NCBI GenBank assembly: GCA_964523855.1
Contig: CAZGAF010000001.1
Coordinates: forward strand, 38,159-73,586
Direction: 5' to 3'
Length of the DNA stretch: 35,428 nucleotides
Source of the DNA: an uncultured Candidatus Saccharibacteria bacterium
GTDB taxonomy: Bacteria; Patescibacteriota; Doudnabacteria; UBA920
Numbering within the stretch: the first letter of the stretch is position 1; each line of letters opens with the position of its first letter. Below, in pieces: positions 3,926 through 32,095 of this stretch. The notes beneath the pieces were generated by a model. That model worked only from the letters and a program-made list of their open reading frames with translations, did no database searches and was not told the DNA's origin. Both the position numbers and the translations under genes were made by a program.

Positions 3926-3936
3926 TTTATATAAAA

Positions 3937-3975
3937 CAAGGGGAATCCTTGCGGTTGCCGCAAAGATTCCCCTTG
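3937..3975. terminator. long hairpin terminator downstream of fusA
   Basis: CAAGGGGAATC..GCGG-ttg-CCGC..GATTCCCCTTG. On the minus strand it is followed by TTTTAT. Confidence 0.65.
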
Positions 3976-4017
3976 TGTGTTATCTGCGTTATCTGTTCCT
4001 GATCTACGTATCTGCGG

Positions 4018-6141
4018 TTACATACCTTTTCTTACATTTATACCAGCTCTGCTTTCAATAATCTTCGCTGCAACGTTCCTCGGAACTTCAGCATAGTGGT
4101 CGAATTCCATGGTGTAGGAAGCTTGACCTTGGGTCATGGACCTTAAGGTTGTAGCGTAACCAAACATTTCGGAAAGCGGCACTTGTGCGTTTATAACTTT
4201 CAAGTGCAAACGGTCAGTCATTTCATTTATTTGAGCACGCTTGGAGTTTAAGTCGCCAATTACGTCACCCATGTTAGTTTCCGGAGTTATAACTTCAACT
4301 TTCATAACAGGTTCCAAAATAATTGGGTCGGCTTTCTTAACCGCGTCTTGCAAAGCTTTAGAACCGGCAATTTTGAAAGCCATTTCCGAAGAGTCAACTT
4401 CGTGGTAGCTACCGTCGTAAGCTGTGGCTTTAAAGTCTACAAGCGGGTAACCGGCTATAACGCCGTTTGCAGCAGACTCTTGAATACCCTTGTCTATAGG
4501 TTTAATAAATTCTTTTGGAATAACACCACCAACAATGGCATCTTCGAATTCATAACCTTTACCGCGCTCAAGCGGCTCAACACGCAAGTAAACATGGCCG
4601 TACTGACCTTTACCACCAGTTTGGCGAATGTATTTGCTTTCAGCTTCAGCCATTTTCTTGAAGGTTTCTTTGTAAGCAACTTCCGGCTTACCTACATTAG
4701 CTTCCACTTTAAATTCGCGCTTCATGCGGTCTACAATAATTTCCAAGTGAAGCTCACCCATACCAGCAATAATAGTCTGCTGAGTTTCTTCGTTTGTAGA
4801 AAGTTTAAATGTCGGATCTTCTTCAGCCAATTTCTGCAAAGCAATACCCATTTTTTCCTGGTCAGCTTTAGTCTTCGGCTCAATAGCCATAGAAATAACA
4901 GGTTCAGCGAATTTGATGGTTTCTAACTGGACTGGCTTTTCTACGTCACACAAAGTATCTCCGGTAAAAGTGTTTTTAGGACCCACCAAAGCACAAATAT
5001 CTCCTGCAAAAACTTCTTTAACTTCGTCACGCTGATCTGCGCGCATACGCACAATACGACCCACGCGTTCTTTGTCACCCGTACGTGCATTTAGGACATA
5101 TGACCCAGCTTCTAGCTTACCGGCATACACGCGGAAGAAACATAAGCGACCTACAAAAGGGTCGGTGGCAATTTTAAAAGCTAACGCTGTAAAAGGTTCG
5201 TCGTCGTTTGGTTTTCGAATTATTTCCGCACCGGTTTTTAGGTCATGACCTTTAGTCTCACCACGGTCGGTTGGAGAAGGTAAAAAGTTGGTGACAGCGT
5301 CCAAAACAGTTTGCACAATAATACCACGACCGTCCCCACCCAAAACCGGGAAGAATTTTGCAGACTGCACAGCTTTACGAATAGCTGTCAAAAATTCTTG
5401 TTCAGTAAGCTCAGTGCCGCCCAAATATTTTTCCATCAATACATCGTCGTATTCAACAACTTTTTCTAAGAGACGGTGACGGTACTCTTTAGCCTTCTCT
5501 AACATATCAGCCGGAATTTCACCAATAGTGAACTCTTTGTCTTTATAGTCCTTGTAGGTGTAAGCTTTCATGTTTATCAAATCCACAACACCAACAATAT
5601 CCTTTTCAAAACCTATTGGAAGTTGAATAGGAAAAGCGTTTGGAGACAAGCGCTTATGAATAGAATCTAAGGACTTATAAAAATCACCACCGGTTTGGTT
5701 GATTTTGTTTATAAAGCACATACGAGGCACACCGTATTTGTCGGCCTGGCGCCATACAGTTTCAGATTGCGGCTCTACACCCATTTTACCGTCAAAAACG
5801 GTAACAGCGCCGTCCAAGACACGCAAACTACGCTCTACTTCTACAGTAAAGTCCACGTGACCCGGGGTGTCTATAATGTTGATTTTATGTTTGACGTCAC
5901 CCGCTAATTTTATAAAGCGAGGCTGCCAGTAACATGTAACAGCGGCGGCAGTAATAGTAATACCGCGTTCGCGTTCTTGTTCCATCCAGTCGGTTGTGGT
6001 TTCACCTTCGTGTACCGCACCGATCTTGTGGATCATACCAGTATTGAACAAAATACCTTCCGTAACAGTAGTTTTACCCGCATCAATGTGGGCAATAATA
6101 CCTATGTTACGAGTGACTTCAATAGGATATTCTCGGGGCAT
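4018..6141 (-). CDS. fusA: elongation factor G
   Basis: 707 aa; [17 protein letters not shown] and the full EF-G domain pattern. Confidence 0.97.
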
Positions 6142-7548: not shown

Positions 7549-7658
7549 TTGATTAGTTGTCAGTGAATAGTGACTAGTGTTTAGTAGTAACAACTTCTCA
7601 CTAAACACTGCACACTGTCCACTAAATAATAATTTTCTTGAATGTTTGTAATAAGCAA

Positions 7659-10610: not shown

Positions 10611-10809
10611 CGGGCTGTAGTATAGTGGTAGTACGCGTCCACTTGCCCTGTTAAATTTTACCCTTGTGCGGGGTATAGTATAGTGGTAGTACGCGCCCAT
10701 GGGGTGGGTGTAGACTGGGTTCGATTCCCAGTACCCCGACCAAGGGTAGAAATATTTAACAGGGTAAAGGGTGAATGTAGTCTGGGTTTGATTCCCAACA
10801 GCCCAACCA
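10611..10809 (+). ncRNA. interrupted/split tRNA-shaped gene (tRNA-Pro paralog) hosting a whole tRNA in its anticodon loop
   Basis: 10611-10640 carries the acceptor 5' strand, a D arm identical to the inner tRNA, and CGTCC. 10769-10809 carries GGGTG, the T arm, the acceptor 3' strand and ACCA. 10645-10666 pairs with 10741-10765 (22 bp, two bulges). Deviations from a normal tRNA: C1.A72, C49.A65, T-loop TTTGATT and an 8-nt variable region. Confidence 0.5.
10669..10742 (+). tRNA. tRNA-Pro (anticodon GGG), CCA encoded
   Basis: Manual cloverleaf: CGGGGTA/TACCCCG acceptor, GTAT/GTAC D stem, CGCCC-AT GGG GT-GGGTG anticodon arm, CTGGG-TTCGATT-CCCAG T arm, discriminator A, CCA. Confidence 0.9.
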
Positions 10810-11449: not shown

Positions 11450-11520
11450 TGCTCCTCCAACCAAATTTTTACTGCCAAAAAATAGATTTTAATTTTTAAA
11501 AACTATTTTTTTGCAACAAA

Positions 11521-11550
11521 AAGAAAAACCCCCTTTGCAGGGGGTTTTAA
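11521..11550. terminator. intrinsic terminator located inside the leader of the 106-aa ORF
   Basis: AACCCCCT-ttgc-AGGGGGTT with T-runs in both directions. It lies between the promoter at 11631-11658 and the ATG at 11449. Confidence 0.7.
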
Positions 11551-28976: not shown

Positions 28977-30044
28977 TTAAAAAATGTTATCCTTTAATAC
29001 TGTCGAAACTTGTATAAACTTTTTAACTTTATTGTCTTCCAAATATACCAAATCTTCAATCCTCACACCACCTTTGTTGGGCACATACACCCCGGGCTCT
29101 ATACTAAATACCATTCCATTTTCTAAAATATCTTTTGACTTGGGAGAAAGGTTGGGCAATTCATGAATTTCTAAACCTGTCCCGTGTCCTAAACTATGTA
29201 TAAAATATTTATCCATACCTTTTTCCGCCAACACCTCAACCGATTTTAAATAAACCTTTTCTGCTTTTACATACGTGCCGCGGGCTCGCTCTAGGTCTAT
29301 ATATTCCATGGAATGTGTATAGGCCTTTTCTACTTGGTTGTAAGCAGCTTCCATTTTTTTGTCCGCTTTTTTTATAAATACAGTTCGAGTGAAATCACTA
29401 CAGTAATTTTTGTATTTAAAACCAAAGTCTAAAATTATAGTTTCCCCAGGTTTTAGTTTTTTATTTCCGGGCATGTGGTGAGGAATCGCTGCATTAGCCC
29501 CACTGGCCACAATAGGCGGAAAAGAAACATCTTCGCCTCCAAGTCTCAAACTAGTACTCTTAATAAACTCAGCCAGCTTAATTTCCGTCATACCTGGCTT
29601 TATAATCTCGTTTCTTAACAGCAAAAATACCTTTTCCACAATTTGCATAGACTTTTTTACCAAGCCCAATTCCTCTGTGTCTTTTACCCGCCTCATTTCA
29701 TCTACCCTGCTTCTTGCAGTCTGTATTTTGATTTTTGATTTTTGATTTTTTAATTTGTGTGTAAGATATTCTCCTTCACCATAAGTAAAATCGTAACCAA
29801 TATCTAATTTACTTTCACCCTGTAAGTAGGTGGAAATATTTTTTAGTCTGTCTACTCTTTTTGACCAAGTAATTTTTTCTAAACCACTGCCAAAAGCCAC
29901 AGTTTGTTTTTTAGTCACAAGTAAAAAATCTTCGGCGTGCAAACCTAAAGGCCGGCCTGTTAAGTAAAGCAAGTTTTCTTTTTTCTTAATCAGAACTGGG
30001 TTTTTTAAAGATTTTTGTAAAGTTTTTAAACGCTGATTGTACAT
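28977..30044 (-). CDS. M24-family Xaa-Pro aminopeptidase
   Basis: HSLGHGTGLEIHE, SIEPG and RIED metal-ligand motifs. Confidence 0.88.
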   Translation of the reverse strand: MYNQRLKTLQKSLKNPVLIKKKENLLYLTGRPLGLHAEDFLLVTKKQTVAFGSGLEKITWSKRVDRLKNISTYLQGESKLDIGYDFTYGEGEYLTHKLKNQKSKIKIQTARSRVDEMRRVKDTEELGLVKKSMQIVEKVFLLLRNEIIKPGMTEIKLAEFIKSTSLRLGGEDVSFPPIVASGANAAIPHHMPGNKKLKPGETIILDFGFKYKNYCSDFTRTVFIKKADKKMEAAYNQVEKAYTHSMEYIDLERARGTYVKAEKVYLKSVEVLAEKGMDKYFIHSLGHGTGLEIHELPNLSPKSKDILENGMVFSIEPGVYVPNKGGVRIEDLVYLEDNKVKKFIQVSTVLKDNIF

Positions 30045-30051
30045 GTGCCCA

Positions 30052-30101
30052 CTCTCCTCCTTTTAGGAGGAGTACTCTGCGAGGCAGAGGGAGGTGGTAA
30101 A
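30052..30101 (+). repeat. two-hairpin repeat element, copy 1
   Basis: CTCCTCC-tttta-GGAGGAG, then CTCTGC-gag-GCAGAG, then GGGAGGTGGTAAA. Confidence 0.8.
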
Positions 30102-30104
30102 GTT

Positions 30105-30458
30105 TTATGCTAAATTCTTTTTTATTTCTTCCACTACTCCATTTAAATTATTTAATACGTCTTTATTTTGAAATCTTATAATTTTGATATTTTGCAGGAC
30201 AATAAAATTGGTTCTTTTAAAATCCTTTTCCTGAGCATTTAAGCTATTGTGGCTTTCGCCATCTAACTCAATCCCCAAATGTTTTTCGTGGCAATAAAAA
30301 TCTATTATATAATAACCTACCCCATACTGCCTTCTAAATTTAACACCAAGCTTACTGCATTTTAGTTGGTTCCACAAAATAATTTCGGGCAAGCCCAAAT
30401 TATTTCTCAGCTCTTTTCTTCTTTGTTTATATTTCGGATTATTGAAAATGTAATCCAT
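30105..30458 (-). CDS. DUF559 (Vsr/restriction-endonuclease-like) domain protein
   Basis: 117 aa; LWNQLK...KFRRQYGVGYYIIDFYC....LGIELDG..H......D..R...L......IRF.N..V matches the DUF559 pattern. Confidence 0.82.
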   Translation of the reverse strand: MDYIFNNPKYKQRRKELRNNLGLPEIILWNQLKCSKLGVKFRRQYGVGYYIIDFYCHEKHLGIELDGESHNSLNAQEKDFKRTNFIVLQNIKIIRFQNKDVLNNLNGVVEEIKKNLA

Positions 30459-30467
30459 AAATATACT

Positions 30468-30517
30468 ACTACCACCTCCCCCTCGATGACTCGGGTACTC
30501 CTCCTAAAAGGAGGAGA
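30468..30517 (-). repeat. two-hairpin repeat element, copy 2 (inverted)
   Basis: The reverse complement reads TCTCCTCC-tttta-GGAGGAG, a third version of hairpin 2 (CCCGA-gtca-TCG(A)GGG), then GGAGGTGGTAGT. Confidence 0.75.
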
Positions 30518-30544
30518 ATATTGCACGCACCTGACAAAGTCCGG

Positions 30545-30597
30545 TTCTCCTCCTTTTAGGAGGAGTCCGTCGCGTTAGCGACGGGAGGTGGTAAAAA
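30545..30597 (+). repeat. two-hairpin repeat element, copy 3
   Basis: CTCCTCC-tttta-GGAGGAG, then CGTCGC-gtta-GCGACG, then GGGAGGTGGTAAA. Confidence 0.8.
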
Positions 30598-30611
30598 ATT
30601 AAGGCAAACAT

Positions 30612-31967
30612 TTATACCAACTGTTTTTCTATATACCCTTTGAGCTCCTCGATCTTCACCCGTTCCTGCTGTTTGGTGTCTCGATTTCTAACTGTCACAG
30701 CTCCATCGTTTAGACTATCAAAATCAACAGTTATGCAAAACGGCGTACCGATTTCGTCTTGGCTATAATAACGCTTGCCTACATTCCCCCTGTCGTCCCA
30801 AGCCACCATAAAATCTTTTCTTAAAGAATCGTAAATTTCCCTGGCTTTAGAAACCAACTCGGGTTTATTTTTCAAAAGAGGAAAAACCGCAGCTTTGTAC
30901 GGAGCAAGCTTGTTAGGTAATTTTAAAGTTATGTTCTCCGGGTCGCTGTCGTCATAAGCAGAAGTAAGTACGGCCAAAAAAGTACGGCTAACGCCCCATG
31001 TCGGCTCTACACAATGTGGTAAAACTTTTTCGCCAGTCTGTGGGTCGGTGTACTCCAAAGACTCACCAGACTTTTCTTGATGGTTTTTTAAATCGTAATC
31101 GGTTCTATACGCAAGCCCATAAAGTTCTTTTTGTCCAAATGGGAACTTAAATTCGGTATCTATGCTTCTCTTACTGTAGTGAGCCCTGTCTGCCTCAGGT
31201 ATTTCTACAAAAACAGCGTTCTCGAATATTCCAAGTTCTTTGCACCATTCTTTTTGCATTTCTAGCCAGTACTCAAACCACTTTTCCCATTCCCCAGGCC
31301 TGACGAAAAATTCTATTTCCATTTGTTCAAACTCGCGAGTCCTGAAAATAAAATTCCCTGGAGTAATTTCATTTCGAAAAGCTGGTCCAATTTGCGCAAT
31401 ACCAAAAGGCAACTGCTTTCGGGAAGTTCCTAGAATATTTTTAAAATTTACAAACATACCTTGGGCAGTTTCCGGTCTTAAATACACTTTGGAATTCTCA
31501 TCTTCAACAGGGCCTAAGTTTGTCTTAAACATCATGTTGAACTTTTTCGGCTCAGTTAGTTCGTTACCAGCAGGCGACTTTAAACCCATTTCTCTAACCT
31601 TTTCCACCATTTGTTCAAAAGTCATACCGGAAACTTGCACGCCGTTATCTTCGAGTAAGTGGTCGAGTCTAAAACGCTCGTGAGTTTTTTTATCTTCAAC
31701 TAAAGGATCGTTAAAAGTGTCCACATGTCCGGAAGCTTGCCAAACTTTTGGGTTCATAATCAAGGCCGCATCTACACCAACCACGTCGTCTCTTTGCTGT
31801 ACAAACTTTTTCCACCATAACTGTTTAATGTTATTTTTTAATTCCACTCCCAAAGGTCCATAGTCCCAACTATTGGCAAGTCCACCATAAATTTCACTCC
31901 CAGGAAAAACGAATCCGCGTCTTTTACACAGACTCACAATTTTATCCATCTTGTTATTTTCTTCCAT
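30612..31967 (-). CDS. glyQS: glycine--tRNA ligase (alpha2 type)
   Basis: IVSLCKRRGFVFPGSEIYGG N-terminal signature plus class II motifs. The start is uncertain: ATG at 31967 is used here, with alternatives at 32018 and 31949. Confidence 0.92.
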   Translation of the reverse strand: MEENNKMDKIVSLCKRRGFVFPGSEIYGGLANSWDYGPLGVELKNNIKQLWWKKFVQQRDDVVGVDAALIMNPKVWQASGHVDTFNDPLVEDKKTHERFRLDHLLEDNGVQVSGMTFEQMVEKVREMGLKSPAGNELTEPKKFNMMFKTNLGPVEDENSKVYLRPETAQGMFVNFKNILGTSRKQLPFGIAQIGPAFRNEITPGNFIFRTREFEQMEIEFFVRPGEWEKWFEYWLEMQKEWCKELGIFENAVFVEIPEADRAHYSKRSIDTEFKFPFGQKELYGLAYRTDYDLKNHQEKSGESLEYTDPQTGEKVLPHCVEPTWGVSRTFLAVLTSAYDDSDPENITLKLPNKLAPYKAAVFPLLKNKPELVSKAREIYDSLRKDFMVAWDDRGNVGKRYYSQDEIGTPFCITVDFDSLNDGAVTVRNRDTKQQERVKIEELKGYIEKQLV

Positions 31968-32095
31968 AACGTTTTCTTTATTAATAACCTTTAAATGCAA
32001 GCTCGTTTTACCGTTCACATAAAATTAATATCCAATATTATATCATAACCTCATAGTAGTAAAAAAGCAAAAACACTTCACTAAGGAGGAAGAAC

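Follow-up and report, generated by a model that had tools for sequence, protein, structure and literature searches.

DUF559 nuclease genes bracketed by structured repeats: a candidate partnership with bacterial intrastrand-triplex repeats

Here, we analyzed a stretch of 35,428 nucleotides (the window) from an uncultured Candidatus Saccharibacteria bacterium (contig CAZGAF010000001.1, positions 38,159 to 73,586), in which a small gene of the DUF559 endonuclease family is bracketed by three copies of a structured repeat of ∼48 nt. The same arrangement of gene and repeats recurs in many bacterial phyla, from AT-rich genomes of the Candidate Phyla Radiation (CPR) to GC-rich ones. We suggest, with a probability of roughly one half, that the locus consists of a DUF559 nuclease and its cognate repeats working as folded single-stranded DNA, analogous to REPIN-RAYT systems (doublets of repetitive extragenic palindromic, REP, sequences with the REP-associated tyrosine transposase). 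A wider proposal, which we put forward only tentatively, is that DUF559 proteins might be the partner enzymes of the bacterial intrastrand-triplex repeats; this would be a second, mechanistically unrelated REPIN-RAYT-like replicator, extending from CPR bacteria to Escherichia coli K-12, with a cis element read as a folded single-stranded DNA triple helix. The features of the locus are given below (bits and E-values are those of R1, a covariance model of the repeat described later; z-scores refer to folding as DNA).

28977-30044, minus strand: M24 peptidase gene.
30052..30100, plus strand: repeat copy 1, antisense to the DUF559 gene and directly past its stop codon; hairpin 1 at 30054-30072 (pyrimidine arm CTCCTCCT, purine arm AGGAGGAG), hairpin 2 at 30075-30089, mirror tail GAGGTGGT at 30091-30098 (R1 49.9 bits, E 2.9e-10; z-score -4.6; mirror rule, see below).
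30105..30458, minus strand: DUF559 gene, 117 aa, a small nuclease with a Vsr/homing-endonuclease-like PD-(D/E)XK fold.
30469..30518, minus strand: repeat copy 2, sense with the DUF559 gene, its tail ending 11 nt before the ATG; hairpin 1 at 30498-30516, hairpin 2 at 30480-30495, tail at 30470-30480 (R1 39.7 bits, E 1.2e-7; z-score -3.1).
30519..30544: 26-nt spacer; copies 2 and 3, on either side of it, stand head to head.
30545..30594, plus strand: repeat copy 3, antisense to the gene strand, between the stop codon of the glycyl-tRNA synthetase (GlyRS) gene and copy 2; hairpin 1 at 30547-30565, hairpin 2 at 30567-30584, mirror tail GAGGTGGT at 30585-30592 (R1 49.3 bits, E 4.3e-10; z-score -6.7).
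30612-32018, minus strand: GlyRS gene.

Along the gene strand, GlyRS comes first, followed by an antisense copy, a sense copy, DUF559, another antisense copy and the M24 peptidase. Copies 1 and 2 are inverted with respect to each other, with their tails abutting the stop and start codons of DUF559 and hairpin 1 outermost. The layout of the repeat is TCTCCTCC-TTTTA-GGAGGAG followed by TAC or TCC, a variable hairpin and GGGAGGTGGTA. This pattern spans 30053-30099 (plus strand), 30470-30517 (minus strand) and 30546-30593 (plus strand). Each copy could fold as DNA into two hairpins on either strand, leaving the tail unpaired (z-scores from -3.1 to -6.7). In the window there are exactly three occurrences of the hairpin-1 19-mer CTCCTCCTTTTAGGAGGAG (0.02 expected with up to three mismatches), a count reached by none of 100 shuffles; the 11-mer tail GGGAGGTGGTA also occurs exactly three times (0.24 expected with up to one mismatch). 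A preliminary description of the window had already reported this bracket of three copies, and the coordinates and exact counts bear it out, with chance excluded. A small and weak hairpin (CCTGAC-AAA-GTCCGG) is possible in the spacer between copies 2 and 3; it is more distinct in two orthologous loci (L036 and L200; L numbers denote the loci that we compared).

The open reading frame (ORF) between the repeats belongs to DUF559 (PF04480: E 4.7e-27, 94.5 bits against a cut-off of 20.6, residues 10-116), and its closest relatives are found in Candidatus Doudnabacteria (82% identity); an exact look-up of the protein in public assemblies gave no entry. Profile searches of the PDB matched 3HRL (E 2.5e-27) and 3R3P, the homing endonuclease I-Bth0305I (E 1.3e-3). 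An AlphaFold2 model of the protein (mean confidence, pLDDT, 89.7) was closest by Foldseek to 3HRL from Neisseria (E 3e-6), then to 3R3P and then to 1VSR and restriction enzymes, in agreement with the Vsr/restriction-endonuclease-like fold expected previously. D53, E64 and D66 were invariant in 35 homologues, and no transposase domain was found in the protein by Pfam scan. The family is large: the query matched 19,000 clusters (50% identity) at E <=1e-3 and 5,721 at E <=1e-10. In Caulobacter, the DUF559 protein VsrA is genotoxic, causing DNA damage, when a cytosine methyltransferase is lost (PMC12907096), and members of the family are therefore active on DNA in vivo. Foldseek also pointed to a DUF559-fold domain in mitoribosomal proteins of Tetrahymena and Toxoplasma (probability 0.7-1.0).

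The association of the repeat with DUF559 was examined across genomes in several ways. An exact scan for the hairpin-1 19-mer, with one genome per species, gave 35 loci. About 19 of them had the full architecture (hairpin 1, TAC or TG, a different GC-rich hairpin and then GGAGGTGGT) and came from Flavobacteriaceae, Namhaeicola, Roseivirga, Draconibacterium, Cyclobacteriaceae and Saccharibacteria. When 80 metagenome loci were fetched by a DUF559 peptide pattern, most had a sense copy just 5' and an inverted copy just 3' of the gene, with the GC-rich consensus CCCCTCC-loop-GGAGGGG, a hairpin and then GGGGTGGT. The covariance model R1 was built from a seed of 17 copies with equal loop length, since MAFFT misaligned the 5' arm when loops were variable, and was applied to 84 DUF559 loci from unrelated genomes and metagenomes (the window and 83 others), giving 231 matches. 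The density of the best 150 matches was 3.79 per kb within 200 nt of DUF559 and 0.076 per kb elsewhere. Orientation was strict, with 36 sense versus 9 antisense copies up to 60 nt upstream of the gene and 37 antisense versus 4 sense copies up to 60 nt downstream. A model-free finder, which required a perfect pyrimidine/purine hairpin plus a mirror tail, placed a sense copy within 150 nt upstream of DUF559 in 67 of the 84 loci, an inverted copy downstream in 47 of the 80 loci with enough 3' sequence, and copies on both sides in 44 of these 80; the density was 6.9 per kb near DUF559 versus 0.24 per kb elsewhere. Thus, up to 200 nt from the gene the repeat is 29- to 50-fold enriched, in a fixed orientation, and the earlier suggestion that the repeat travels with DUF559 holds well beyond the window. 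The distance from tail to start codon ranged from 3 to 129 nt across loci.

As a control, 80 loci on viral contigs, which mostly carry distant DUF559 homologues, contained only three motifs in 246 kb, all of them beside the two closest homologues (L120 and L121). A phage origin was rejected on this basis. Among the DUF559 loci, nucleases flanked by repeats of the same type were 49.2% identical on average, versus 46.1% for different types, a value reached in none of 500 permutations; it is only a small difference, and it may reflect co-inheritance or co-adaptation alike. Two other arrangements were observed near the gene. Tandem direct arrays lie upstream of DUF559 in L075 (29-169, three copies with a 47-nt period) and L112 (1866-1968, two copies), and in GC-rich cassettes a conserved palindrome, GTCAAC...GTTGAC, occupies the 40-60 nt between tail and ORF (L095, L099, L112, L055 and L069), where it could be an operator or a promoter.

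The gene and its repeats also behave as one unit. The cassettes of L062, L114 and L117 are 83-90% identical over ∼85 nt upstream, the ORF and ∼60 nt downstream, with unrelated flanks. The common stretch runs from inverted repeat to inverted repeat and ends at the outer edge of hairpin 1, as would be expected of the cassette with terminal inverted repeats that the preliminary description had proposed. L110 and L114 share 453 nt at 100% identity, both flanks diverge, and the break in L110 lies inside the 3' repeat; the element may have recombined there, or the assembly may be chimeric. Repeats without an ORF are found as tail-to-tail dimers (L028, L031 and L003) and as tandem arrays in Flavobacteriaceae and other loci. 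The Flavobacteriaceae loci have many dimers and few DUF559 genes. Singlets and inverted doublets are dispersed in the Flavobacteriaceae loci and in E. coli, whereas all three copies of the 35-kb window are at the gene. With regard to synteny, the cassette at the GlyRS-M24 junction is present in three Doudnabacteria-like genomes (the window, L036 and L200); L036, where the order is likewise GlyRS-DUF559-M24, carries these three copies and one more. In two other genomes, the same junction has neither cassette nor repeats and carries an unannotated ORF of 258 aa (L201, 1720-2496) or 78 aa (L203, 2262-2498). The junction is a variable spot, because other ORFs replace the cassette there. Elsewhere (L037 and L038), the cassette lies between ribulose-phosphate epimerase and transketolase genes.

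The predicted hairpins are maintained by covariation. In a model-based alignment of 134 distinct copies, 95.6% of the cells were paired. Hairpin 1 was 97.7% paired, with four of its nine pairs changed on both sides; hairpin 2 was 90% paired, and all seven of its pairs were changed on both sides. The covariation score of the whole structure was reached by none of 500 shuffles and collapsed when partners were slid. It should be noted that a model-fitted alignment favors pairing; the raw sequences gave the same picture. Both the compensatory change of hairpin 2 and the selection on structure itself, which had been proposed from the three window copies, are upheld by this larger set. Between orthologous copies, hairpin 2 differs almost completely and the flanks stay fixed. 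G-U pairs are rare overall and make up ∼1% of hairpin-2 pairs, a scarcity that fits a requirement for folding on both strands or selection at the DNA level. Among 149 distinct folding hairpin-2 sequences, triloops were the commonest, 35 were GNA triloops and 90 had a C:G closing pair. Mini-hairpins of the d(C-GNA-G) type are unusually stable in DNA.

The tail of the repeat follows a simple rule: in reverse order it repeats the purine arm of the first hairpin, G being matched by G and A by either A or T. In the window, AGGAGGAG is mirrored by GAGGTGGT; other pairs are AGGAGGGG with GGGGTGGT, AAGGGGAGG with GGAGGGGTT, AAGGGGAGA with AGAGGGGTT, AGGGGGAG with GAGGGGGT and AGGGAAGG with GGAAGGGT. 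More than 15 arm types were found, each with its own mirrored tail. The preliminary description was right that the tail is conserved in all three copies; it missed that the tail mirrors the purine arm. All perfect pyrimidine/purine hairpins of the loci, taken on either strand, were checked for a mirrored tail within 48 nt, and 253 of 559 strand-instances had one, which corresponds to ∼90% of hairpins, each on one side only. Permutation of arm types gave 64.7 +/- 6.3 matches, with a maximum of 82 in 200 permutations. Arm, partner and tail change together even between orthologues: CTCCTCC/GGAGGAG/GAGGTGG in the window corresponds to CCTCTCC/GGAGAGG/GGAGTGG in L200 and to CCCCTCC/GGAGGGG/GGGGCGG in L036, where one position is non-canonical. 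The linker between purine arm and tail is either ∼3 nt (84 instances) or a hairpin of 12-20 nt; in the window it is 18-19 nt and contains hairpin 2.

Since the tail mirrors the purine arm across arm types, the repeat has the geometry of an intrastrand purine-motif DNA triplex, of which a mirror tail allowing G.G:C, A.A:T and T.A:T is the signature. Other explanations of the tail were considered. A Watson-Crick duplex between tail and 5' arm was rejected, as it amounts to at most 4-5 bp and is not conserved between types, and the mirror rule explains the covariation. The G content would allow a G-quadruplex, which leaves the A-to-A/T mirror positions and the need for a pyrimidine arm unexplained.

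BoxC, PIT (potential intrastrand triplex) and other triplex repeats have been catalogued since the 1990s and linked to genome instability, and Hoyne and Maher are said to have described them as intrastrand triplex repeats in 2000. Intrastrand triplex motifs (TM) were later characterized as abundant bacterial repeats, with a focus on the BoxC/PIT/TM_ECO repeats of E. coli (Holder et al. 2015, PMC4666352). In that study, the TM_ECO consensus is CCCTCNCCC N3-6 GGGNGAGGG N3 GGGNGAGGG, the TM_ECO/BoxC DNA strand formed a stable triplex in vitro by circular dichroism and nuclear magnetic resonance, and purine-motif triplexes are stated not to form in RNA; TM loci were unusually variable between strains and described as rearrangement hotspots, five MG1655 sites were inverted pairs of two subtypes, and the flanking genes showed no consensus and no link to mobile elements (PMC4666352). 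The window repeat shares with these the order of pyrimidine arm, loop, purine arm, second loop and G-rich mirror segment, the intergenic location, and the occurrence both singly and as tail-to-tail inverted pairs of two subtypes. It differs in its arms, which are of the CTCCTCC or CCCCTCC type instead of CCCTCNCCC, so that the TM_ECO consensus does not apply, and in its second loop, which is 18-19 nt with a covarying hairpin versus 3 nt in TM_ECO. On the basis of sequence and predicted structure, it is most probably a hairpin-bearing variant of the BoxC/PIT/TM intrastrand-triplex repeats. Such variants would escape the search of Holder et al. (ITxF), because its loops were restricted to 1-6 nt (PMC4666352). 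The link between DUF559 and BoxC/triplex repeats is new here: a term search of the main text of PMC4666352 found neither "ycjD" nor "endonuclease" and no reported gene-family association, and our literature search found no paper linking DUF559 or ycjD to repeats, nor one tying intrastrand triplex/BoxC repeats to an endonuclease, RAYT or REPIN. Inverted pairs mostly mix subtypes, such as CCCCTCC with CTCCTCC (L028, 793-889, and the flanks of L037 and L038) or type A with type B in E. coli (PMC4666352), and hairpin 2 often differs between the two arms of a pair. In this way, long perfect palindromes would be avoided.

In E. coli, the DUF559 protein is YcjD (b1289), which has 117 aa and is 38% identical to the window protein. 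The stop codon of ycjD lies inside a degenerate inverted copy, and a canonical BoxC is found ∼170 nt downstream. E. coli also has ORF-less tail-to-tail dimers. As additional observations at this locus, the stretch between ycjD and BoxC holds a duplicated piece of the ycjD 3' end (∼4290-4370 on the minus strand of L119, NC_000913.3 1347000-1353000), and a perfect 16-bp hairpin (CACCTCATTCTGACAA...TTGTCAGAATGAGGTG) has the GTG start codon of ycjD at its end. The gene is single-copy (maximum 2), confined to one locus, and present in 3378 of 5426 complete E. coli genomes; genomes without it have eefRABCD at that site (PMC12817139). BoxC was found in all 5426 genomes, at 1-27 places (median 15; 23 copies in K-12). 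To relate the two, a 762-nt query (ycjD, BoxC and the start of fabI) was used on 60 evenly spaced records, of which 59 were chromosomes. The median number of BoxC places was 17 in the 37 genomes with ycjD (range 9-24) and 3 in the 22 without it (range 1-12; Mann-Whitney p = 8e-10, ignoring phylogeny). Among the genomes lacking ycjD, an O157-like group had 10-12 BoxC copies, and a group including Nissle 1917 had mostly 1-3.

We propose that these elements work as follows. The pyrimidine and purine arms would pair as hairpin 1, and the G/A/T tail would fold back antiparallel on the purine arm to give G.G:C, A.A:T and T.A:T triplets, with the variable hairpin 2 occupying the connecting loop. DUF559 would be the structure-recognizing cognate nuclease of the repeats, as RAYT is for REP/REPIN, and its single-copy, mostly vertically inherited gene would stay bracketed by its own repeats with tails inward. 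A nick at the folded element might engage host replication or repair, which would maintain the repeats and occasionally copy ORF-less ones elsewhere; solo copies, tail-to-tail dimers and tandem arrays would be such copied forms. The likeness to REPIN-RAYT lies in a single-copy, mostly vertical nuclease gene between inverted copies of its own structured repeat, in singlets and inverted doublets, dispersed in Flavobacteriaceae loci and in E. coli, in a structure that is kept as the stem sequence varies, and in a repeat population that seems smaller in E. coli genomes lacking the gene. However, RAYT is an HUH/Y1 transposase with a covalent intermediate, whereas DUF559 is a PD-(D/E)XK hydrolase; the element here is a hairpin with a mirror tail, a triplex candidate, instead of the GTAG-tagged palindrome of REP, and cleavage and transposition are conjectural on the DUF559 side.

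Other known systems are less similar. Homing endonucleases such as I-Bth0305I share a related fold (3R3P, profile E 1.3e-3; Foldseek TM-score 0.65-0.77) and are also small, selfish-looking genes, but DUF559 lies outside introns and inteins, has structured inverted repeats on its flanks and shows no sign of spread into the many ORF-less dimers. Vsr shares the fold class (1VSR, Foldseek probability 0.95, TM-score 0.48); identity is only ∼12%, DUF559 here is tightly linked to a repeat, and no cytosine methyltransferase gene was seen beside it in the window or in L036-L038. IS200/IS605 insertion sequences (IS) and miniature inverted-repeat transposable elements (MITE) are comparable in their tiny units (∼470 bp here), structured ends and ORF-less derivatives made of the ends only; they differ from the DUF559 cassettes, which have no transposase of a known family, no target-site duplication and a low copy number of DUF559 per genome. 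A classical IS or MITE was rejected for lack of both the duplication and a transposase.

Several observations weigh against a nuclease with cognate folded-DNA repeats. Of the 35 loci retrieved by the repeat, only 2 had a DUF559 gene within the fetched 8 kb, which fits repeat dispersal and equally fits independence from the gene. No repeat copies were found in the 35-kb window beyond the three at the DUF559 locus, and no target-site duplication was seen at the cassette ends of L062, L110, L114 and L117. The window cassette looks old, vertically inherited and not recently mobile; because the locus is old and syntenic, it gives no sign of recent mobility. The O157-like E. coli genomes lack ycjD at its locus yet keep their 10-12 BoxC copies, and the correlation between ycjD and BoxC may be a phylogroup effect. 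We infer that the repeat folds in vivo, that DUF559 recognizes and cleaves it and that some mechanism copies it; with regard to copying, PD-(D/E)XK enzymes hydrolyze DNA and no strand-transfer activity is known among them. In vivo dimethyl sulfate footprinting in E. coli did not detect a stable triplex, and earlier work found PIT elements without promoter or terminator activity (PMC4666352). Finally, DUF559 in Caulobacter is functionally linked to cytosine methylation with a presumed role in T:G repair, which is a different job (PMC12907096).

Four alternative explanations should be weighed against the proposed system. It is conceivable, though on balance unlikely, that DUF559 is a host structure-specific repair nuclease, acting on hairpin or triplex roadblocks at replication forks or in Vsr-like T:G repair, and that the repeats are independent parasites or instability elements linked to it without mobilization. 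The Vsr-like fold, the DNA damage by Caulobacter VsrA without a cytosine methyltransferase (PMC12907096), the rearrangement hotspots at TM loci (PMC4666352) and the single-copy, vertical and syntenic nature of the gene would all suit such a role. It leaves unexplained the strict geometry across phyla, with tails inward, a sense copy 5' and an inverted copy 3' at the start and stop codons, as well as the end of cassette homology exactly at the outer hairpin and the tracking of repeat type by nuclease similarity (49.2% vs 46.1%, 0 of 500 permutations). We regard as slightly more doubtful a homing-type selfish cassette, in which DUF559 would cut ORF-less dimers and repair from a filled copy, with the repeats as homology arms, would insert the ORF. 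I-Bth0305I is among the nearest solved relatives, the ORF-less tail-to-tail dimers share the cassette geometry, L110 and L114 are identical over 453 nt in different flanks, and a duplicated ycjD 3' fragment adjoins BoxC in E. coli. Yet E. coli has a median of 15 BoxC places and one ycjD (maximum 2), so its dimers are not being filled; Flavobacteriaceae likewise have many dimers and few DUF559 genes, and the Doudnabacteria locus is stably syntenic.

Control at the RNA level was also considered, with the sense copy as a 5' untranslated structure hiding or presenting a Shine-Dalgarno (SD) sequence and the inverted copy as a 3' stabilizer or terminator. In our interpretation, this idea fares worst among the alternatives and is improbable. 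The sense copy is always upstream of the ORF, GGAGGTGG lies 8-9 nt before the ATG in some loci (L038), and in the window GGAGGAG is 9 nt before the M24 start codon. The preliminary description had read hairpin 1 as an SD-like sequence paired to an anti-SD-like one and had proposed an SD for M24. Neither proposal is supported by the comparison, since arm types such as GGGGAGA, GGGGGAG, GGGAAGG and more keep the architecture without GGAGG, and in the orthologous L036 the putative SD of M24 is missing. An SD role for the tail is likewise at odds with a tail-to-start distance of 3 to 129 nt. In addition, there are hardly any G-U pairs, and the mirrored purine tail suits a triplex of a kind that is not formed in RNA; the inverted copy is not followed by a T-run and has no predicted terminator, and PIT elements lack promoter and terminator activity (PMC4666352). 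Rfam gave no family at the gathering threshold or at E <=10, only spurious microRNA-like matches to the palindrome. Least probable of all is a passive accumulation of ordinary genome-wide palindromes around any small, horizontally acquired gene. Most Bacteroidota repeat copies are indeed far from any DUF559 gene, and the GlyRS-M24 junction is variable, with other small ORFs in relatives. Against this stand the 29- to 50-fold enrichment in fixed orientation in unrelated lineages from AT-rich CPR to GC-rich genomes, the relatives whose other ORFs at the same junction have no repeats, and the distant DUF559 homologues on viral contigs, which have none either.

Some other structured features were observed in the window. 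At 10611-10765, a 31-nt tRNA 5' half precedes the intact tRNA-Pro(GGG) (10669-10742) by 25 nt and matches its start at 90% identity; the intact tRNA itself is between inverted repeat arms CCCTGTTAAATTTTACCCTTG (10645-10665) and CAAGGGTAGAAATATTTAACAGGG (10742-10765). An intergenic inverted repeat at 7552-7633 has 34-nt arms (74% complementary) and a 14-nt spacer, and two long near-perfect hairpins at 3929-3983 and 11466-11522 have arms of 26 and 27 nt (85% complementary) with 3-nt loops. A TTTTGA-like short tandem run at 29725-29755 in the M24 peptidase gene gives a K/S/I-rich stretch on the coding strand.

If DUF559 proteins are indeed the partners of these repeats, BoxC/triplex repeats and DUF559, two long-standing puzzles, would explain each other. 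The nuclease would be a natural protein able to read triple-helical or hairpin DNA, and the system would be a second domesticated repeat-replicator beside REPIN-RAYT, offering a handle on repeat-driven genome plasticity.

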